Assembly: GCA_963835065.1 (NCBI GenBank)
Contig: CAWIEK010000024.1
Span: forward strand, 1 to 64,000
DNA length: 64,000 bases
Direction of reading: 5' to 3'
Source: an uncultured Chthonomonadaceae bacterium
Lineage (GTDB): Bacteria; Armatimonadota; Chthonomonadetes; Chthonomonadales; Chthonomonadaceae
Shown here: in pieces, positions 39,945-48,999 of the stretch
How positions within the stretch are numbered: the stretch's first letter is position 1
How the letters are laid out: every line of letters begins with the position of its first letter
Made by a program: the position numbers and the translations under genes
Notes under the pieces: generated by a model
What the model was told of the DNA's origin: nothing
The model's input: only the letters and a program-made list of their open reading frames with translations
The model's database searches: none

Positions 39945-40043
39945 TTGGTGGTTGGTGGCTGGTGGTTGGTGATTGGTTTACAAGTATACGCTTATCGCAG
40001 GCGTCATCTTAAACCAATCACTAATCACCAGCCGCCAACCACC
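39945..40043. repeat. Inverted heptamer arrays (TGGTGGT-like) ... (ACCANCC-like)
   Basis: Read directly; overlaps the glycosyltransferase stop codon. Confidence 0.75.
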
Positions 40044-41143
40044 TCCTCATACGCTTGATCCTGCCGCTGCGCCATTGCCTGCGCGGTGTAGCAGGCGGCA
40101 AAGCGTTCCCGCGCGGCGCAACTCCAGCGCTTGTTGATTTCGGGCGTAAACGCTTGGGCAAGCCCTGCCGCAAACGCCGCAGGATCGGCAATCGGGGCCA
40201 GCCAGCCGTTTTCGTCATGCGTTACCACATCCCGGACTCCCGGCGCGTCACAGCCCACAATCGGCAGGCCGCATGACATGGCTTCCAGAGCGGCGAGGGG
40301 AAGCCCCTCGAATTTGGACGGCAGCGCCAACACATCCGCTGCCGCCAGCAGGGGCGCAATGTCGTGGCAATTGCCCAAAAACCGCGTTTGCTCGCCCACG
40401 CCGATCCGCCGGGCTTCCTGTTCCGTCGCGTGTCGCGCCCAGCCGTCACCCGCAAATAACGCCATTGCGGGCTGCCCCTGCGCTTTCAGTTTCGCCAGCG
40501 CATGCAGCAGCACATACGGGTCTTTCTGCTCCACAAGCCGCCCCAAAAACAGCGCGACAGGCATGTCCTGCGGTAAATCCAACGCCTGCCGCGCCTGCCG
40601 TCGAGAAAGGGGCAAGGCTATGGCTTCCACGCCGTTGTCTATGACAAACGCCTTTTCCGGCGCGATCAAATCACATCCCAGCAGCGATTCGCGCACACTT
40701 GCCGATACGCCGTACAGCCGATCCAAAAGCCCGTTTACGCGCCGCCGCCGTTCCAGTTCATGCTCCAGTTTCAGGACGCAGGGAATATGCTCTGTCGCCA
40801 CCACATAAGGCACATGCGCGCACCGAGCAGCAATGGTTCCCCAATCCCCTTCCCACGTCGCGCCGATGTGGTTGTGGAAAATATCAATACGCCATTCCTG
40901 CAATTGCGTTACCAGCCGGGGCAATTGCGCCACATCCGCGTCCCATCGCAGCGTAAACCGCGCCACCCCTGATACATACGATGCCATCCGCGCGACAAGT
41001 TCGTCCGTTCCCGGATGCTCGGCGCAAATCAGGAACGTTTCGTAGCGCGCGGACGGCAAATGCTTCGCCAGCAACTCCATTACGCGGCCCACGCCGCTCG
41101 GATGCAGACTGTCGGTATAAAAGGCTAGGCGGTGAGTGGGCAT
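40025..41143 (-). CDS. GT4 glycosyltransferase
   Basis: GRLVEQK and EGLPLAALEAM motifs. Confidence 0.9.
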   Translation of the reverse strand: MPTHRLAFYTDSLHPSGVGRVMELLAKHLPSARYETFLICAEHPGTDELVARMASYVSGVARFTLRWDADVAQLPRLVTQLQEWRIDIFHNHIGATWEGDWGTIAARCAHVPYVVATEHIPCVLKLEHELERRRRVNGLLDRLYGVSASVRESLLGCDLIAPEKAFVIDNGVEAIALPLSRRQARQALDLPQDMPVALFLGRLVEQKDPYVLLHALAKLKAQGQPAMALFAGDGWARHATEQEARRIGVGEQTRFLGNCHDIAPLLAAADVLALPSKFEGLPLAALEAMSCGLPIVGCDAPGVRDVVTHDENGWLAPIADPAAFAAGLAQAFTPEINKRWSCAARERFAACYTAQAMAQRQDQAYEEVVGGW

Positions 41144-41239
41144 AGAGATAAGAGATAAGAGATAAGAGATAAGAGGGTAAGAAACGGTATAAGATAGCAG
41201 CTATGAGACGCCTTTTCTCTTATCTCTTATCTCTTATCT
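41144..41239. repeat. Inverted hexamer arrays (AGAGATA-like / TTATCTC-like)
   Basis: Read directly between the two glycosyltransferase genes. Confidence 0.85.
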
Positions 41240-42333
41240 AGTGCCTGAAACAGCGCTTCCCACTGCGGCACGACGGCGTGGGAACTGTAGGCGCGAACCA
41301 CATGGGCGCGTAAGGCTTGGCCCAGGCGGGCGCGTTGGCCGGGTTGGTCAATCAAGTTAAGCATTGCTTGCGCGACGGCGGGCGGAGTTTCATGCGGCAC
41401 GAACACGCCTGAAATGCCGTCTTCGATTTGCTGCGGCGTACCGCCGTCGCGGGTAGCGATGACGGGCAAGCCCGCCGCGCCCGCTTCGGCAATCACGTGC
41501 GGCATCCCCTCGCCCTGCGACAGCCAGGTGAAAATATCCAGCCCGGACAGCAGGCGCGGCACGTCGGGACGGTCGCCGGTGAAAATCATGCGGTCAGCCA
41601 ATCCCCGCTCCTGCGCCTGTTGCTTTAATCCGTCCGCATATTCCGGGTGAAACGCATCCGGCCCGCCGATAACGACAAAACGCGCGTTCGGACGCTGAGG
41701 CGCGACAAGGGCGCAGGCTTCGACAAAATCCTGTACGCGCTTTTTGGGGTCCAGCCGCCCCACCCATCCAATTACAACCGCATCAGGCGCGACGTTCCAC
41801 TCCGCCCGTACCGCTGCGCGGTCTTCCGGGCGAAACTCCGACATATCCACCATGCTCGGAATTTCCAGCGCCCATTCGGGGTCGGGCATCACCGTTGCCG
41901 CCGCGTCCCGAATGTCTTTGCACACGCCCACATAGGCGCTCGTATGGTGCTTGGGATTGTGGAACGCTTCGGACACCAGCCCGCCATGCTCAATTAAAGG
42001 TGGAACCGGCCCGCCGTCCGCGCGCAGCAAATCATAGGCCACATACACGGGGCGGACGCCCTGACACGCCACCACGACATTAAACTGATCGTCGCGTATC
42101 CGTTGCGCGATATGCGGCCCGTGTTCCTCCGGCCCCGTGCCGTAGCAGTACGTGTCTACGGCAACGCCCAATTCGCGCAACTGCTCGTGCGTCTGGTACG
42201 GCATGTTGGGACGCCGGTACGTGGACAGCGCTTCCAGATGGTAGCGCTTGCGATCCAGACACCGCGCCAACAGCCGCAGTTCCGTTTCTTCCCCGCCCAC
42301 CACCAGCCACGCAAACACAAACAAAATCTTCAC
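41227..42333 (-). CDS. GT4 glycosyltransferase
   Basis: GRLDPKK and EGMPHVIAEA motifs. Confidence 0.9.
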   Translation of the reverse strand: MKILFVFAWLVVGGEETELRLLARCLDRKRYHLEALSTYRRPNMPYQTHEQLRELGVAVDTYCYGTGPEEHGPHIAQRIRDDQFNVVVACQGVRPVYVAYDLLRADGGPVPPLIEHGGLVSEAFHNPKHHTSAYVGVCKDIRDAAATVMPDPEWALEIPSMVDMSEFRPEDRAAVRAEWNVAPDAVVIGWVGRLDPKKRVQDFVEACALVAPQRPNARFVVIGGPDAFHPEYADGLKQQAQERGLADRMIFTGDRPDVPRLLSGLDIFTWLSQGEGMPHVIAEAGAAGLPVIATRDGGTPQQIEDGISGVFVPHETPPAVAQAMLNLIDQPGQRARLGQALRAHVVRAYSSHAVVPQWEALFQALDKR

Positions 42334-42348
42334 GGGTTTACTTGTTCC

Positions 42349-43491
42349 TTACCCTTCGCACTCCAACACCACCTGCAAAGCCTGCCCGCCCTCATGCGCC
42401 AGCAGGGAAAAGGCTTCCTGCGCTTCGGCAAACGGCAGGATGTGCGTAATCAGGTGTTCGCGTACATCCGCGCCTCTTTCCTGTAAAAACGCGAGGGTTG
42501 TCAGTGCCAGGCGGCGGTGGTTCCATGTTGCCGACATCTTGCGTGGGACGCGGTAGATTTGGGCGCAGATATGTTTCAGGCCGTTGTGGTGGAATTCGCG
42601 CCCCAGTTGCAGATTGTTCGCGCCGCCCTGATAAAAGCCCAGGTCAATGACGGGGCACTGTGGCTGCAAAGCGCGCAGGCACAAATGCAACAGTTCGTCC
42701 GAACCCGAACATTGGAAGGCTATGTCCGCGCCCCGGTTGCCCAATCCGTCGTGCCAGTGCGTTTTGGCCCACCAGCCCACGTCTATCTCCTGCGTGTTCA
42801 GAGCCGTCATGCCAAGCCGCGTCGCCCGCTCCAATTTCCACGCATTGCGGCCCGCAACTGCCACTTCCGCCGCGCCCGCCCACTGGCACAACATGCCCGT
42901 AAACAGCCCGATAACGCCCGTGCCGCCGATTAGAACGCGCTTGCCTCGGACGCCGCAGCCAAAGGTTTGCGCATTTGCGCCGAACGCTTCTTCATCCGCA
43001 TGAAGCAGGCCATTGGCGCAAATCGGCCCCATCTGCGCCACATAAATACCGAGCATGGGATCGAAATCGGGAGGGAGAGGATAATACAGTTCGTTGCGGG
43101 CCAAAACCGTATGCCCGCTCTTGTGTCCATACGTCACGCTGACCGTTTGCCCGGCTTCCACGCCCCACGCCCGCGACGCGACGACCTGCCCCACCTGCAT
43201 ATAGCCGGAAAACGGCAGGGGATACTGCGCCCTGTCGCCCCAATCGAAGAACACTTTGAGGTCATTATCCCAACGCGCATGAAGATAGGGGTTGGTTCCG
43301 AGGAAATGGGTCAGTTCGGTTCCCGTGGAAAGCCCGCAATACAAGGTGCGAACGCGAAACGCCTCCGGGGGCAGTTCGCCCTCTTCGTAATGAAAAATCG
43401 CGGCGCGTTCGGGCGCTACAAACCCAATATGCTCCACGCCAAACGGCCCCTGATAAGCGTTTTCCTGTTCGCGGCTCATGCGTCCATCCAA
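42349..43491 (-). CDS. Medium-chain (zinc-type) alcohol dehydrogenase family protein
   Basis: GLSTGTE and GTGVIG Rossmann motifs. Confidence 0.82.
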   Translation of the reverse strand: MDGRMSREQENAYQGPFGVEHIGFVAPERAAIFHYEEGELPPEAFRVRTLYCGLSTGTELTHFLGTNPYLHARWDNDLKVFFDWGDRAQYPLPFSGYMQVGQVVASRAWGVEAGQTVSVTYGHKSGHTVLARNELYYPLPPDFDPMLGIYVAQMGPICANGLLHADEEAFGANAQTFGCGVRGKRVLIGGTGVIGLFTGMLCQWAGAAEVAVAGRNAWKLERATRLGMTALNTQEIDVGWWAKTHWHDGLGNRGADIAFQCSGSDELLHLCLRALQPQCPVIDLGFYQGGANNLQLGREFHHNGLKHICAQIYRVPRKMSATWNHRRLALTTLAFLQERGADVREHLITHILPFAEAQEAFSLLAHEGGQALQVVLECEG

Positions 43492-43607: not shown

Positions 43608-44843
43608 TCAATCTGAAGTTATAATTTGTTTGTCCGGCAGCAGCAGGCGCATCTCGATTTTGTCCGCGCCGAAATAGCCCTGCTGTCGGCGCACTCCAGC
43701 AGGAACTTTCACCACAAGCGCCTGACGGCTTTGCGCCACATACGCGCCCCTGCGCGCCACAACCCAACCGCCCTCCTCCACGCCCAATCCCGTATAGCCC
43801 GGCTGATCCAGCACCGCTGTCAGCAGGCGCTGCATCCGATTACGGGCAAAAAAATGCTGGTCTACAATGGTTTTGGGCAGCAGGTTGAGGCCGCTTGCCA
43901 GGGGACAGCCGCCGGACTGCAAGCCCTGCGTTTTCACCGTTTCGCCCGTCGGCATTTTGGCTCCCATCAGCGAGGCTCCCGCGCTTGTTCCCCCCACAAC
44001 GCCGCCGCGCCGCAATACCTGTCGTATGGCTTCCGGGACGCCCGAAGTTTCCGGGAAAGCGGTCATAAAGCGGTTCTGGTCGCCGCCCGGTATCCACACG
44101 CCCCGCGCTTCCCGCAAGCGCCTGCACAAGTCGTCGGGAGACAATCCTACCGGAGCATCCACCTGCCGCGCGCCGTTGTCCCGAAACAAGGCGACGGATT
44201 CCGGCCCGCCCACAGCCGGGTCCGCTTCCGTTTGCGGCAAAATCACAATCGGCGCGTCCGGCCCGCCCGCCGCTTCCACAAAGGTCTTTACCAGCGCGGG
44301 CGATGTTTTGCCGCCGCCCGCCACCAGCACGGTTCCGGCGTGGTTCGGCTCTTTTGCAGGCGCGGAACCTTCCGGCAGTTGTCCGGCTGCCGTCGTGTCC
44401 TGCGCCTTTCCCTCCTGCACAGTTGCCGCGCCAGGAAGCGTATTCGCCGCGCCGCGTAGTTCTTTGGCTATCGGCGCGTTCAGGCGATCCGGGCGTTCGG
44501 CGGCGTAGCCGGGAGCCACCATCAGCGCCGACAGCAGCCGGAAAGCGGACCGTGAAGCCAACGAGAACGACAAGCCGCCGGGAAGATGCGCGGGCCGAAA
44601 CAACACCCAACCCTGCCACGCAAACACCAGCAGCCAAAACAGCGTCACCCAGGGCGGCTTGGCCCAGCACCGCCACGTTTTCACGCCCTTTAACGCCGCC
44701 AGAACATAGAACAGGGTCGCCAGCCCCGACAGCGCGAACAGCGCGTACTTTTGAAAAATCAGCACGAGAAACGCCGCCTTACAAAACGTAAAAGCGTAGC
44801 CCTCGTACTTGCGCCCCTGCTCTTGTCTGTCCCATTCGCTCAT
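43608..44843 (-). CDS. Cyanophycinase/peptidase S51 fused to an N-terminal membrane module
   Basis: GGDQ, GTSAGA and DQHF..RNR motifs; first ~110 aa hydrophobic. Confidence 0.85.
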   Translation of the reverse strand: MSEWDRQEQGRKYEGYAFTFCKAAFLVLIFQKYALFALSGLATLFYVLAALKGVKTWRCWAKPPWVTLFWLLVFAWQGWVLFRPAHLPGGLSFSLASRSAFRLLSALMVAPGYAAERPDRLNAPIAKELRGAANTLPGAATVQEGKAQDTTAAGQLPEGSAPAKEPNHAGTVLVAGGGKTSPALVKTFVEAAGGPDAPIVILPQTEADPAVGGPESVALFRDNGARQVDAPVGLSPDDLCRRLREARGVWIPGGDQNRFMTAFPETSGVPEAIRQVLRRGGVVGGTSAGASLMGAKMPTGETVKTQGLQSGGCPLASGLNLLPKTIVDQHFFARNRMQRLLTAVLDQPGYTGLGVEEGGWVVARRGAYVAQSRQALVVKVPAGVRRQQGYFGADKIEMRLLLPDKQIITSD

Positions 44844-44896: not shown

Positions 44897-45442
44897 TTAC
44901 TTTAGCACGTCAAGATTATTATCTGCAGCATCTCCAATACTGGACTGTTGCCTGCTCCGCCATACCTTCCGACAGAGTATAATGCCGCCTACTAATCCAC
45001 TGCCGTAACTGCCCAGATGGATCCACAAATCGGTTAAAAAATAAACATGGCGACTGGCAGGAATTTGAGAAGCAAGTGGCTCTACCAAGTACACCAGACG
45101 CGCTGTTGCGGCGGCAAAGCCGATGATACCCGCAAGAATAGCACAACACGCCATCGCGCCAAGCAAAATGCCAATCGGACGCGCTAACGACCAAACCGAA
45201 CGTTTCGGAGCCTCACCATGCAGCGCGGCAAACGCGAGCGGAATGCCGAGAAGCAACCCTACCCACCATGTAGCAACAATTCCCCAACCCAACCCCAACA
45301 GCGTGGGATTGTCTGTGCCGAAAATGTTCGGATGTCCAATCGTAAAATATTCGACACAAATACGCGCCGTGATTTGGTCATGGATGATACCGTAGCAAAC
45401 CGCCGCAACGATGCACAACAGGATGATAGTTAAGAATTTCAA
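44897..45442 (-). CDS. Conserved hypothetical membrane protein
   Basis: YGIIHDQITARICVEYFTIGH and WGIVATWWVG; about four TM helices; GGAGG RBS. Confidence 0.8.
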   Translation of the reverse strand: MKFLTIILLCIVAAVCYGIIHDQITARICVEYFTIGHPNIFGTDNPTLLGLGWGIVATWWVGLLLGIPLAFAALHGEAPKRSVWSLARPIGILLGAMACCAILAGIIGFAAATARLVYLVEPLASQIPASRHVYFLTDLWIHLGSYGSGLVGGIILCRKVWRSRQQSSIGDAADNNLDVLK

Positions 45443-45472
45443 AATACCTCCGTCTGCTCAACCCTCAACTAC

Positions 45473-46969
45473 TCAACTCTCAACGCTCAATGGAATAATC
45501 GTTTCCGGCTTCCTTTGCCCACGATGAAACACGTTGTACTCGCAGAAGGAAACGGCTTCGCCCTGCGCGTTCAGGATTTTGGTGCAGCACTGTTGGATAC
45601 GCTTGTGGTCGTATGTGTGCGCGTCCATGAACGGTTTTACCACGACGCGAAACACGCGCCTGCCGAACTGTTCCGGCTGCCCGATGAGCGGCAATACATC
45701 CCGCAGGCCGCTGCGCAAAAACAGGGTCGCCAGGTCGCGCAGGGTTTGGCGGGCGCGCAAATGGGCTACGTCCGACCAGACCCGCCGCGCCGCGCCGCCC
45801 AGCATCCCCGCGAAACTGATCCGATCCGCGAACAAATCCAGATAGCGGGCCACGTCCAGATGGCGCGGCAGGGGCGTAATAGTTTCGCGCTTGGCGTCCA
45901 GAAAGCCATACGTCAGGGCGCAGCAATCGGGGTGCGAACAGGGCAGGCCGACAAAATCGCTCGTCAGCAACGCGCCGCCCGTTTGACAATCCAACTCGCG
46001 CAGCACGTCCGTCATGGTCAAGCGCTCATGCGCGGCGAATTCATGTTCGTACCGCCCCGCGCTCATTACGGGCTGAAACGTCAGGCCGTTGATGTTATCG
46101 AGTGACAGGGCGTAGCGGTACAGGTCGCCGATTTCATCGTCATTAACGCCCCGCTCCAATGTCGCCACAAGAGTTACGAACAAGCCCTTTTCCTGCGCCC
46201 GCCGCAAGGCTTTCTGCTTGACGGCAATCAAGTCCCGCCCGTACAAACGCGCCTGCACATCCGCCCGGAAACTGGAAAACGAGAAAAACAACTCCACGCG
46301 CTCACGATGCGCCGCCAGAACTTCCAGCAGTTCGTCGCTTTGCTCCAAACGCAGGCCGTTGGTATTCACCAGGATACGCCCGATGGGATATTCTAACGCC
46401 AAATTGAGCATTTCGGCAAAGTGGGGATGAATGGTCGGCTCACCGCCACTGAGCATTAGCACATCCAGACTGCGCTGTGTCCGAAAAAACGTGTCCAATC
46501 GCTGTCGCGCCGTTTCCACGCTCATAAAATCGTGCCCCCGCGCATCCGCATAGCACGTCGGGCAGCGCAGATTACACGCGAGGGTGATTTCCAGCAGCAG
46601 CACACAGGTGGGAGGAGCGGGAGGAAAGGATGAATCCATTGCCGGTTGCCGATTGCCGACTGCCGATTGGGTTTTTCCTGTTCCCTGTTCCCTGTTCCCT
46701 GTTTCCTCTTCTATTCCCCCGCAGCAGGCGGAGTCGCTGCCGCAGCAGCCGGTGATTGCGCTTGGCAGCCCGACACGCGGCGACACGTACCGGCGGAGGC
46801 GCAGGTACTCGTTGGCGTCTGATGCCAGCAGCGCTTTAGATGCGCCGTGACGCGGACAGGTTCGTTCCATCCACACTCGTTCCGCCTCGACAAACAGCCG
46901 GGCGGGAACCGTCCGCAGGCACGTCGGGCACAATCCGTCCGTCTGCTCGGTCCACTCTGCCATTTCCAT
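45473..46969 (-). CDS. Radical SAM enzyme of the Tes/GDGT-MAS (MJ0619) type
   Basis: N-terminal CPTC...CPRHG, CNLRCPTC, SGGEPTIHP, PCSHPDC, C-terminal CC...SFCEYN. Confidence 0.88.
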   Translation of the reverse strand: MEMAEWTEQTDGLCPTCLRTVPARLFVEAERVWMERTCPRHGASKALLASDANEYLRLRRYVSPRVGLPSAITGCCGSDSACCGGIEEETGNREQGTGKTQSAVGNRQPAMDSSFPPAPPTCVLLLEITLACNLRCPTCYADARGHDFMSVETARQRLDTFFRTQRSLDVLMLSGGEPTIHPHFAEMLNLALEYPIGRILVNTNGLRLEQSDELLEVLAAHRERVELFFSFSSFRADVQARLYGRDLIAVKQKALRRAQEKGLFVTLVATLERGVNDDEIGDLYRYALSLDNINGLTFQPVMSAGRYEHEFAAHERLTMTDVLRELDCQTGGALLTSDFVGLPCSHPDCCALTYGFLDAKRETITPLPRHLDVARYLDLFADRISFAGMLGGAARRVWSDVAHLRARQTLRDLATLFLRSGLRDVLPLIGQPEQFGRRVFRVVVKPFMDAHTYDHKRIQQCCTKILNAQGEAVSFCEYNVFHRGQRKPETIIPLSVES

Positions 46970-47063
46970 ACCGTTTTCTACGCTTTCTTCAAACAGGCAA
47001 TGCAGGCATCAGGCACAAGTTTCAAGCATACCTGTACCGAACACCCTTAGATGTGAGTAACTT

Positions 47064-47214
47064 TTCACCACCAAGACGCCAAGAACACCAAGAGAAAACA
47101 GGCCACAAAAAGACACAGAATCGAAGTTGGTTTCGTTCTCTCCTGCAATTTCACTACGTTGTTCTTCTCGTCCTTCTTGTTCTGCTTGGTGTTCTTAGTG
47201 TCTTGGTGGTGAAA
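47064..47214. repeat. Inverted 9-mer element; second copy at 55479-55610
   Basis: TTCACCACCAAGACGCCAAGAACACCAAG ... CTTGGTGTTCTT(A/G)G(T/C)GTCTTGGTGGTGAA with different interiors. Confidence 0.9.
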
Positions 47215-47228
47215 AGTTAGCGATGTGA

Positions 47229-47585
47229 TTATATATTTCTGCACAGTATCAGGATTCCCAGGAAAATCAACAGCACAACCAAGAAGGGAATCATCATGCC
47301 GCAGGCCGCGAAATGGGATCGTCGGTACACATACAGCGCGGCCAAAACCGTGCCTACCCAGGGCAGAGAGTACAGCCATAACGCGCTTGGAAACACAGAT
47401 ATGAACGCCACGCTGACGACGCTCAACCCGATCAGCAAACCGAAGGATAGGCCGAACCCCGCCAGTATGTCCAGGGCTTTGTTGTTCGTCAGCAGCTTGG
47501 GCGATGGATGCAGCGACGTGCCGCATTGCGGACAGTAGAGGGTGTTGGGAGGCGTCTGGATATGACAATTCGGGCATTGTTTCAT
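47229..47585 (-). CDS. Zinc-ribbon membrane protein with a near-terminal Cys
   Basis: CPNC...CPQCG, three TM helices, ends LGILILCRNI; GGAGGAGG RBS. Confidence 0.8.
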   Translation of the reverse strand: MKQCPNCHIQTPPNTLYCPQCGTSLHPSPKLLTNNKALDILAGFGLSFGLLIGLSVVSVAFISVFPSALWLYSLPWVGTVLAALYVYRRSHFAACGMMIPFLVVLLIFLGILILCRNI

Positions 47586-47664
47586 GTTGGTTCCTCCTCC
47601 GGCAGCGCGCAATAAAATGGTTCATCCGGTTCGTGAACGCAAGGGACGGCCCGTGATTGGCGTG

Positions 47665-48342
47665 TTAGGAAAGCGCGAAACTGTCCGTCGCTTGTCCTGC
47701 GCGCAGCAAGTGGCGCAGGCGAACCGAAAAGAAAATCGCGCCCGCGATACATGCCCACTGCGCAGCGGTAATCATGGCGGCATCGGGATGGTCGCGCCAG
47801 AATTCCACGCCGAACCGCGCTATGCAGTACAAGGCTCCCTGCGCGCAAAACAGCGCGTTTTCCGGCAGGGTTTGGTTTCGCCGCGCTTCCAGCAAAATCA
47901 GGACGATCAAAATCAGCAGGCAGGACAGGGATAAATATAGCTGCGTGGGATGGCGATACGCGCCGTGCTGCCACACCGCCCATGCCATGCCCGTCGGCTT
48001 GCCATAGCAGCACCCGCCGAAAAAACAGCCCCACCGCCCCACCGCTTCGCCCGCGCAAATCGCCACCGCGAATAAATCTCCCGTCGGGCGTCGGATGCCA
48101 AGCCACTTTTTCGCCAGCGCGACAGCCAGATACCCGCCCACAATGCCGCCCAATACCGTTTTGCCAGCCGTGCCCGTCGTCAGCCATTGCGCTACATTCG
48201 CGCACAGCAGCCCGCCGATGATGCCCGCTACGAGCAGCGCGAAAATGCCTTCTGTCGCCAGGCCGCGCCGTCGCGCCATCCACGCGAACGCCGCCAACCC
48301 AGTCAAATATCCTGCCGCATAACAGCCCGCCGAAAGCGTCAT
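47665..48342 (-). CDS. Prolipoprotein diacylglyceryl transferase (Lgt) family paralog
   Basis: GRWGCFFGGCCYG, RHPTQLY and RFGVEFWR motifs. Confidence 0.88.
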   Translation of the reverse strand: MTLSAGCYAAGYLTGLAAFAWMARRRGLATEGIFALLVAGIIGGLLCANVAQWLTTGTAGKTVLGGIVGGYLAVALAKKWLGIRRPTGDLFAVAICAGEAVGRWGCFFGGCCYGKPTGMAWAVWQHGAYRHPTQLYLSLSCLLILIVLILLEARRNQTLPENALFCAQGALYCIARFGVEFWRDHPDAAMITAAQWACIAGAIFFSVRLRHLLRAGQATDSFALS

Positions 48343-48480
48343 TTCACTCCCATTCCGTAAGCGCTCTGTGATCTCATTCGCGCTTTTTTATTCGCGTTCA
48401 TTCGCGGCTTCTTAACTCTGAAGTCGGTTTTGAAGCCGGTTCGCCAATCTTTGCTCCCCATTTCACCCTTCATTGCCGCG

Positions 48481-48999
48481 TTATTGCCGTGTCAGGGTGA
48501 AGACAGCGCCGACATTGACATGGCTTGGATCGGAAGGCAGTCCGGGCAGGAGCAATATTCCTCCCAAATGTCCCTGAGCGTCAAAACCATAGTTGCCGTT
48601 GGCAGGATTACTCTGGCTGCCCTGCACAACGGTTCCTCTCACAATGCCTGTCGTGGTGTCGCCGCTGGTATCGAATTGGGCGTCCACCGTGCCGTCCTGA
48701 TTGGCAGTCGCATTGTGGAGCGTACCTGTGATTTTGCCCTTCGCGTCAATGTCGAGCGTCAAGTTTCCGGTTTGCAGGGGGCCGAGGGTTGATCCGAGAT
48801 TCGTCGGGGTCTGCCATGTGCCGATCCAGCGGCCAACAAACTTGGAAAGCGGCTGCGGCGGCGTCAGTTGAGCCACGGGAAAAGAGGAGGCTGGCTGAAA
48901 GTCCTGGGGGCGTATAGGCCCGCCATATCCGCATCCAATGAGCAAGCTGCTGCCGAGTGTGAGCGGGATCAGCAGTAAGAGCGCGTGAGAAGTTCGCAT
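48481..48999 (-). CDS. Lipoprotein
   Basis: LLIGC lipobox; GGAGG RBS. Confidence 0.75.
   Translation of the reverse strand: MRTSHALLLLIPLTLGSSLLIGCGYGGPIRPQDFQPASSFPVAQLTPPQPLSKFVGRWIGTWQTPTNLGSTLGPLQTGNLTLDIDAKGKITGTLHNATANQDGTVDAQFDTSGDTTTGIVRGTVVQGSQSNPANGNYGFDAQGHLGGILLLPGLPSDPSHVNVGAVFTLTRQ

Follow-up and report, generated by a model that had tools for sequence, protein, structure and literature searches.

The locus analysed here raises the question of which task joins a second Lgt-like protein, a small membrane protein with a cysteine close to its C-terminus and an enzyme of the radical S-adenosylmethionine (SAM) kind that resembles the tetraether synthase Tes (GDGT-MAS). It lies on a 64,000-nucleotide stretch of DNA, hereafter the window, from an uncultured Chthonomonadaceae bacterium of the Armatimonadota (assembly GCA_963835065.1, contig CAWIEK010000024.1, positions 1 to 64,000). 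An earlier sequence-only reading had proposed a dedicated lipid or lipoprotein modification system of five genes. All five open reading frames (ORFs) are present on the minus strand with the motifs as quoted and a gene set does recur in other genomes, but its membership differs. The conserved core consists of four genes: an Lgt paralog (47665..48342, 225 residues, PF01790), a cysteine-bearing membrane partner and candidate substrate (47229..47585, 118 residues), a Tes-like radical SAM enzyme (45473..46969) and the AFTFCK protein, present in the window as a domain of about 85 residues (44589..44843), all on the minus strand. As argued below, the cassette may constitute a dedicated protein-lipidation line.

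A recurrent four-gene core

The host genome (8.0 Mb) contains one PF23545 gene and two PF01790 genes, and the closest relatives of the radical SAM gene at this locus are found in Armatimonadota. Among the best 80 of 183 stretches around relatives of this gene, an Lgt-family gene occurs in 58; 16 of the other 22 have less than 3 kb of upstream DNA and six have at least 3 kb. This grouping is far beyond chance. The AFTFCK protein has a match in 70 of the 80 loci; in 55, no more than 200 nt separate its motif from the stop codon of the radical SAM gene, and three of the ten non-matching loci end within 134 bases past that stop. Its gene lies just beyond the coordinates given in the sequence-only reading and was missed there. 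The predicted lipoprotein and the protein with four transmembrane segments (4-TM), both counted as members in that reading, have matches in 0/80 related loci. In a public contig about 95% alike the radical SAM gene is joined to the AFTFCK domain, and unrelated sequence stands where the window has the 4-TM gene and the peptidase part. The core accordingly consists of four genes.

The association was also evident in a survey of 121 Armatimonadota genomes, each at least 90% complete. The radical SAM enzyme is encoded in 28 of them. Lgt matches of at least 175 bits numbered 27, every one within these 28 genomes, and the 28th (G051) carries an interrupted Lgt paralog adjoining the enzyme; the best Lgt match in the other 93 genomes reached 154 bits. 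Seven of the top hits below 175 bits were fetched, and all were His-bearing housekeeping Lgts. Paralog and enzyme share one contig in 25 of the 28 genomes, and the AFTFCK protein, found in 22/121, is confined to genomes with the enzyme. A housekeeping Lgt was also present in every genome tested, although the genome scan scored at most 24 candidates per genome and missed some housekeeping copies; the idea that the paralog is the sole Lgt in three genomes was abandoned once a housekeeping copy was found in each. Since none of seven sampled genomes of the same family carries the cassette (0/7), its distribution is patchy.

The full four-gene set also occurs in records whose titles name Chloroflexota and Eremiobacteraceae-type bacteria, and in Nonomuraea. 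Mycobacterium branderi and two Bacteroidota records encode Lgt, the enzyme and Cys-bearing partners, the AFTFCK protein not being seen in the DNA covered; the actinobacterial and Bacteroidota examples were drawn from plasmid-collection records.

Enzyme, paralog and membrane partners

GDGT-MAS was the top match of the radical SAM enzyme in the PDB by sequence and by fold. The predicted structure, of low confidence at residues 66-112 and 387-406, aligned to 7TOM with a Z score of 41.5 over 420 residues (root-mean-square deviation 3.1), the next entry reaching 20.5. A rubredoxin-type site (C14, C17, C38, H41) and the SAM cluster (C132, C136, C139) are invariant in 61 aligned rows, and the equivalents of Gln268 and Arg275 are kept. 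Across 15 Tes proteins, only three cysteines of the C-terminal part are invariant; C349, C461 (followed by C462) and C476 (preceded by F475) align with these, and we infer that they are the ligands of the C-terminal cluster. The N-cluster motif (C73, C77, C80 and His), present in 15/15 Tes, was found in 0/61 enzyme rows; the N-terminal linker has three to four other cysteines in 36 of these rows and none in 23. The sequence-only reading, which had called the cysteine layout that of Tes, is supported by the whole fold and the three C-terminal cysteines, but the enzyme falls below the Tes cut-off. Met439 is replaced by Lys445 in 61/61 rows and Tyr459 by Ile465. Both residues are fully conserved among archaeal homologs, yet GDGT-MAS variants M439A, Y459F and Y459L are reported as still active (PMC9433317), so that Tes-like chemistry would still be possible. 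Within the linker that replaces the N-cluster domain, positions 46636-46712 of the window form an in-frame, short tandem-like repeat with 106 matches in the genome.

In a tree of 68 rows (IQ-TREE quick mode, with support from the Shimodaira-Hasegawa-like approximate likelihood ratio test, SH-aLRT, only), the 15 Tes proteins form one side of a branch with a support of 100, and 42 cassette-type enzymes, a few of them with the Lgt on another contig or beyond the DNA covered, form a separate branch with a support of 98. Within the latter, clade A (35 rows, SH-aLRT 99) includes the window enzyme; its members keep the three C-terminal cysteines (35/35), have Lys for Met439 (35/35), lack the N motif (35/35) and do not have Tyr459. 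Forcing clade A together with Tes was rejected (approximately unbiased test, p-AU 0.00013, 27 rows). In the strict sense the enzyme therefore lies outside the Tes clade, an outcome that the sequence-only reading had itself named as evidence against its proposal. The Tes references were drawn from loci fetched by a motif pattern that selects Met439 by design (44 full length); the 10/10 proteins tested passed the Tes cut-off with 494-746 bits. The best NCBIfam score of the window enzyme is to TrsS (NF045646, 233.8 bits against a cut-off of 490), and one true TrsS takes a different place in the tree, at the end of a long branch. The enzyme is a member of a separate, Lgt-linked subfamily of the Tes/GDGT-MAS structural family.

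Related loci show further variants. In L084, L088 and L108-L110 the N-cluster motif is kept and the three C-terminal cysteines are lost, the reverse of the window enzyme. At twelve loci (L086, L253-L262, L271) the radical SAM gene is of a sister subfamily and the next gene encodes a methyltransferase that bears an N-terminal CC motif; the DNA covered there includes no Lgt. L271, at first labelled Lgt-linked, groups with these enzymes and has a methyltransferase neighbour. The cassette of a record titled Rubrobacter (L062), whose genome was assigned to the same phylum sample as a Chloroflexia genome, groups with those of Chloroflexota. In L251:2907-3806 and L252:512-1414, members of a third cassette subtype, a membrane protein of 299-300 residues directly follows the radical SAM gene.

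The Lgt paralog matches PF01790 with 101.6 bits (cut-off 24.9) but stays under all NCBIfam equivalog cut-offs (TIGR00544, 50.2 against 118.9 bits). E. coli Lgt (PDB 5azb) was the sole significant match in a profile search (E 2e-18) and also in a fold search with the predicted model; a phmmer search of the PDB with the single sequence did not recover it. The E. coli residues R143, G154, R239, E243 and R246 are kept as R103, G114, R176, E180 and R183. In the cassette rows R143, G154 and R239 are each retained in 82/82, E243 in 81/82 and R246 in 80/82; these counts come from 90 rows, 84 of them different, from which fragments had been excluded together with a shadow frame, a second paralog and a short housekeeping locus. 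The motif GRWGCFFGGCCYG at residues 102-114, regarded in the sequence-only reading as atypical, proved ordinary, cysteine occupying the positions of N146 and E151 in 8/8 housekeeping Lgts of the phylum. The housekeeping Lgt of the same genome (contig C53) reads GRIGCYLNGCCYG. The gene adjoining it we take, from its motifs, to be LspA-like. Distant Lgts with the same substitutions at N146 and E151 have been reported (PMC13251419). What distinguishes the paralog is a change in the HGGL motif: His103, present in 8/8 housekeeping rows, is found in 0/82 cassette rows (L64 in the window), and position 100 is Lys or Arg in 81/82 cassette rows versus 0/8 housekeeping rows (Lys61 in the window). Peptide binding and thiol activation have been put forward as roles of the HGGL motif (PMC4728403, PMC8689077). 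Because the phospholipid-binding arginines R143 and R239 persist in 82/82 rows and the proposed peptide-binding motif is altered, these sequences suggest an Lgt in which phospholipid handling is kept and the acceptor site is changed, although the paralog may also be an inactive Lgt.

The candidate acceptor has an N-terminal zinc ribbon, two to three predicted membrane helices and the motif LG-x4-C, in which C115 stands three residues before the C-terminus (LGILILC115-RNI). C115 is present in 64/69 rows. Partners, gathered by position between lgt and enzyme, evolve fast and occur in one to many copies per locus. The membrane part of the window's partner subtype was found in all seven genomes with this enzyme subtype, always within the cassette, together with one further weak match (E 1e-4) inside a 1061-codon frame; partners encoded elsewhere in the host genome were ruled out, as no other full-length copy exists there. 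The near-terminal cysteine on which the sequence-only reading had built its proposal is conserved in syntenic relatives. Among zinc-ribbon partners, 39/47 have a cysteine 2-16 residues from the C-terminus, compared with 79/270 control ORFs from a six-frame translation of the host genome, some of them spurious; a narrower window at the helix end gave 30/47 versus 52/270, and LG-x4-C, a motif derived from the same set, 33/47 versus 1/270. A Cys-tailed zinc-ribbon partner occurs once or more in every locus tested (31/31). Partners with a helical N-terminal domain carry G-x-C in 22/23 cases, and six of this type continue for 142-161 residues beyond the cysteine in a lipoprotein-body-like part. A third type, from other Armatimonadota, is a hairpin whose first helix ends in G-x-C (35/52, no control). 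As judged from predicted topology, what the partners have in common is not a C-terminal placement of the cysteine but its position where an in-to-out helix reaches the outer side; 2.3 basic residues precede the last helix and 0.8 follow it, a signal-peptide-like bias. This predicted position agrees with the proposal that the cysteine lies on Lgt's working side, the active site of Lgt facing outward (PMC4728403). Mean identity to relatives is 0.25 for the partner, as opposed to 0.68 for the enzyme, 0.60 for the Lgt paralog and 0.70 for the AFTFCK protein, and because of this far faster divergence the partners look like substrates rather than subunits.

Two partner arrangements deserve mention in their own right. 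A Capsulimonadaceae locus (L025:1-5805) has about 14 tandem zinc-ribbon partners, mostly Cys-tailed, upstream of the radical SAM gene, and no lgt within its 6 kb of DNA. In ten Chloroflexota loci (L066, L067, L069, L070, L074-L076, L078, L080, L081) a domain of 137-161 residues follows GG[TS]C and ends in W-x-C; these partners resemble lipoproteins with an internal lipobox and have no Pfam family.

The AFTFCK domain has three hydrophobic stretches and two invariant cysteines (21 and 59) predicted on the cytoplasmic face; it has no Pfam family, and its Atlas clusters are unnamed. In nearly all relatives it is a stand-alone gene, but in the window it forms the first 85 codons of the ORF 43608-44843. 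Of 25 sampled genomes with an enzyme devoid of the N motif, 22 were found to have it, as against 0/3 of those in which the enzyme retains that motif; since a single clade is involved, this is at most a hint that the protein compensates for the lost N-cluster motif. A predicted complex of enzyme and AFTFCK scored 0.00 and was not used as evidence. At L063 and L107-L110, genes for an ICMT/PEMT-family methyltransferase and a DUF4395 protein adjoin the enzyme, and the AFTFCK protein was not found there. DUF4395 shares F-x-F-C-K/R with AFTFCK, but hhalign gave a probability of 2.5% over 19 columns and homology was not shown.

Proposed function and rival explanations

We propose that the cassette is a dedicated protein-lipidation line, a reading which, drawn as it is from genes, folds and residues, we hold at a probability of roughly 0.45. 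Phospholipid tails would first be modified on the cytoplasmic side of the membrane, where the radical SAM enzyme is predicted to act; as with Tes, the modification would most likely consist in linking the ends of two tails. The Lgt paralog would next pass the modified glycerolipid on to the partner's conserved cysteine, which faces outward. Phospholipids of E. coli are bound by GDGT-MAS, an enzyme that draws chains into its own pockets (PMC9433317). A lipid already attached to the outer cysteine would be hard to reach for an enzyme that has no export signal and presumably works in the same way; with tail modification first and transfer second, this problem of sidedness is solved. The proposal is supported by the conservation of the partner cysteine in three unrelated architectures and by related loci with additional methyltransferases of the ICMT/PEMT family, whose members act on lipids or on lipidated cysteines. 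Its parts are not equally firm. That the paralog forms a thioether lipid on a non-lipobox cysteine appears quite likely, and the product would remain uncleaved in the membrane because the residue preceding the cysteine is usually large. If the paralog does lipidate, a lipid tail is probably also the radical substrate, but carbon-carbon coupling of tail to tail, argued from analogy with Tes, would be only about half as probable as that. The AFTFCK protein might weakly be suggested as a membrane dock, or as a two-cysteine metal or electron relay, for an enzyme lacking the N-terminal cluster motif. The boldest form of the proposal, which is doubtful, is a second, dedicated lipidation pathway of bacteria: a Tes-like enzyme would weld fatty-acyl tails together to give a phospholipid that is macrocyclic or spans the membrane, the His-less Lgt would staple it to a non-lipobox cysteine, and the AFTFCK protein would serve the enzyme as its missing membrane subunit.

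Several observations weigh against this proposal. His103, the proposed catalytic base, is lost in 82/82 cassette rows, and E. coli H103 mutants fail to complement (PMC4728403, PMC8689077), although other working Lgts are reported to carry Y, W or F in its place (PMC13251419). The canonical lipobox [LVI][ASTVI][GAS]C is found in 1/30 and 0/22 partners; in the window partner L-I-L-C before the tail departs from it, and the cysteine, at residue 115 of 118, does not stand behind an N-terminal signal peptide. The enzyme scores 190.3 bits against NF045702, far under the Tes cut-off of 450. GDGT-MAS traps the first radical at its C-terminal cluster (PMC9433317; review PMC13459092), and because five Lgt-linked enzymes (two Bacteroidota, three Armatimonadota) lack all three C-cluster cysteines, Tes-type radical storage cannot be the chemistry shared by the whole group. 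As the sister subfamilies, TrsS and the methyltransferase-linked enzymes, show no lipid context, the fold does not fix the substrate. Known bacterial producers of diabolic acid or membrane-spanning lipids mostly have no Tes homologs, according to a statement in PMC13159169. The 175-bit line in the genome survey was set once the scores were known, and the surveyed genomes include kin, so that the counts are not independent. Lastly, all chemical steps of the proposal are inferred.

A first rival keeps the opposite order of events, that of the sequence-only reading: the paralog would add an ordinary diacylglyceryl group to the partner cysteine, and the radical SAM enzyme would afterwards cyclise the two chains of the lipidated protein or cross-link one of them to a second lipid or protein, possibly a cysteine of AFTFCK. 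Recruitment of the enzyme would fall to the zinc ribbon or to the helical N-domain, in the manner of the leader of a ribosomally synthesised and post-translationally modified peptide (RiPP). Multiple, variable partners with a conserved cytoplasmic N-terminal domain do look like precursors and fit the RiPP pattern, though the cassette has no conserved peptidase, and the large pocket of GDGT-MAS binds headgroups non-specifically (PMC9433317). The N-terminal domains, however, are wholly different between lineages and are missing from Bacteroidota partners of 59-64 residues, and a lipid head fixed on the outer face is ill placed for an enzyme without an export signal whose relative pulls chains into its own pockets (PMC9433317); we regard this order as unlikely. 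A little less likely again is that the radical SAM enzyme itself links the partner cysteine to a lipid tail, or to a residue, through a C-S bond, with a paralog that only binds and presents lipid and helix or that carries out another transfer. The loss of His103 in 82/82 rows would then be explained, a C-S intermediate is part of GDGT-MAS chemistry (PMC9433317), one radical event can do without a C-cluster, in keeping with the five enzymes that have none, and many partner cysteines are followed by more hydrophobic residues and may sit deeper in the bilayer. Yet R143, R239, E243, R246 and G154 are kept almost without exception, working Lgts naturally have Y, W or F at position 103 (PMC13251419), and predicted sidedness places the cysteine away from the enzyme.

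The small proteins need not be acceptors at all. In a pathway for a special membrane lipid, the paralog would use a non-protein acceptor and the small proteins would be sensors, carriers or regulators whose cysteines bind metal or form disulfides. The ICMT/PEMT hits could then be phospholipid methyltransferases, the fast divergence of the partners (0.25 identity) is unlike that of enzyme subunits, and 8/47 zinc-ribbon partners lack a tail cysteine. The convergence of three unrelated architectures on one cysteine at the same predicted side of the membrane, and the presence of at least one Cys-tailed partner in all 31 loci tested, make this account rather improbable. Less likely still is a module without any lipid chemistry, namely a membrane redox, metal or sulfur/selenium module akin to the TrsS and methyltransferase-linked sisters with a degenerate Lgt as scaffold. 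All four proteins are rich in cysteine, Cys-rich DUF4395 proteins occur in some loci and the top NCBIfam score is that of TrsS (233.8 bits). That score misses the cut-off of 490, the tree separates Lgt-linked enzymes from TrsS and methyltransferase-linked ones, and the catalytic arginines of Lgt are invariant, so that we consider such a module very unlikely.

Neighbouring features, significance and known systems

The remaining features of the locus lie around and between the core genes, and scans for promoters and terminators there stayed at chance level. A predicted lipoprotein (48481..48999, minus strand) with an N-terminal lipobox L20-I-G-C23 and no assigned family is a neighbour of the cassette, not a member. 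The 4-TM protein (44897..45442, minus strand), which falls into unnamed Atlas clusters at 0.97, is a passenger between the radical SAM and AFTFCK genes. An S51 (cyanophycinase-like) peptidase domain (43608..44588, minus strand; PF03575, TIGR02069 under cut-off, motifs GTSAG, DQH and GVEE) is fused behind the AFTFCK domain as a lineage-specific accessory. The fusion recurs in L006 (66% identical), the only one of the 80 loci besides the window; given this single further case and the absence of the domain from the contig about 95% alike, a role as general processing enzyme was rejected. Between the partner and radical SAM genes, 47049-47222 is a non-coding repeated element with 84 blastn matches of at least 40 bases in the genome, cleanly missing from one related contig. 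Downstream and co-oriented, 40025-43491 encodes a Zn-dependent dehydrogenase and two GT4 glycosyltransferases, the dehydrogenase being linked in 2/80 loci only.

No description of the gene set was found in open-licence PMC and bioRxiv full text, supplements of Tes and Lgt papers aside. The component families are known, neither protein passes the defining tests of its own family, and the combination is without described counterpart. What Tes homologs do in bacteria has been under question since 2022, and they serve as candidate markers of branched-tetraether producers; 456 are listed in PMC8941075 with function hypothesised only, the words 'lipoprotein' and 'neighbor' not occurring in its main text, and PMC9433317 makes a 'roadmap' remark on them. 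The genes tied to one large branch of these homologs now turn out to be those of a dedicated Lgt paralog and of membrane proteins that bear a cysteine, not bulk lipid genes. This is a warning against using the branch as a tetraether marker, and a candidate substrate, residue and partner can be named. If the proposed lipidation is true, it would extend protein lipidation beyond the lipobox rule, possibly with the first protein on a tail-joined lipid anchor, and some unexplained second lgt genes might gain a function. In its boldest form, proteins would be anchored by a bilayer-spanning lipid, and a sizeable group of so far unexplained Tes homologs of bacteria would have a function. The cassette is widespread and its inferred chemistry directly testable.

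Compared with known systems, the enzyme shares with Tes/GDGT-MAS (M. jannaschii MJ0619; PDB 7TOL, 7TOM; NF045702) the whole fold, the rubredoxin-type C/C/C/H site, CxxxCxxC and the C-terminal cysteines, but has a Cys-rich linker of low model confidence where Tes has the CPxxCGxCxxH motif of the N-cluster. It is bacterial and linked to an Lgt paralog, whereas the pattern-fetched Tes loci, with their short flanks, gave no hits for Lgt, partner or AFTFCK. TrsS and the methyltransferase-linked relatives belong to the same structural family (PF23545 and PF04055) but to another branch of the tree and have other neighbours. A second Lgt is known from M. smegmatis: MSMEG_5408 is reported to carry Y26H and N146C (PMC13251419), the same pattern as the Lgt of an actinobacterial cassette (L085). 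A different lipid preference has been speculated for it (bioRxiv 2025.01.07.631728), and the passages concerning it in both sources mention neither substrates nor a connection with a radical SAM enzyme. With the Lgt-LspA-Lnt pathway (E. coli Lgt, 5AZB) the cassette has in common the fold, family and kept residues of Lgt and a candidate acceptor cysteine at the predicted outer end of a hydrophobic helix preceded by basic residues. Unlike E. coli Lgt, the paralog is a second copy, is shorter, has no N-terminal arm in this lineage and reads K/R-S/T-x-L/I-GG in place of HGGL; the acceptor cysteine is near-terminal or internal without a lipobox, and the cassette has no LspA. In eukaryotic CaaX processing, a cysteine near the C-terminus is prenylated, trimmed and methylated by ICMT. 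The cassette has no prenyltransferase and the window no ICMT gene, but the resemblance lies in the candidate lipidated cysteine near the C-terminus and in the ICMT-family genes of some related loci.

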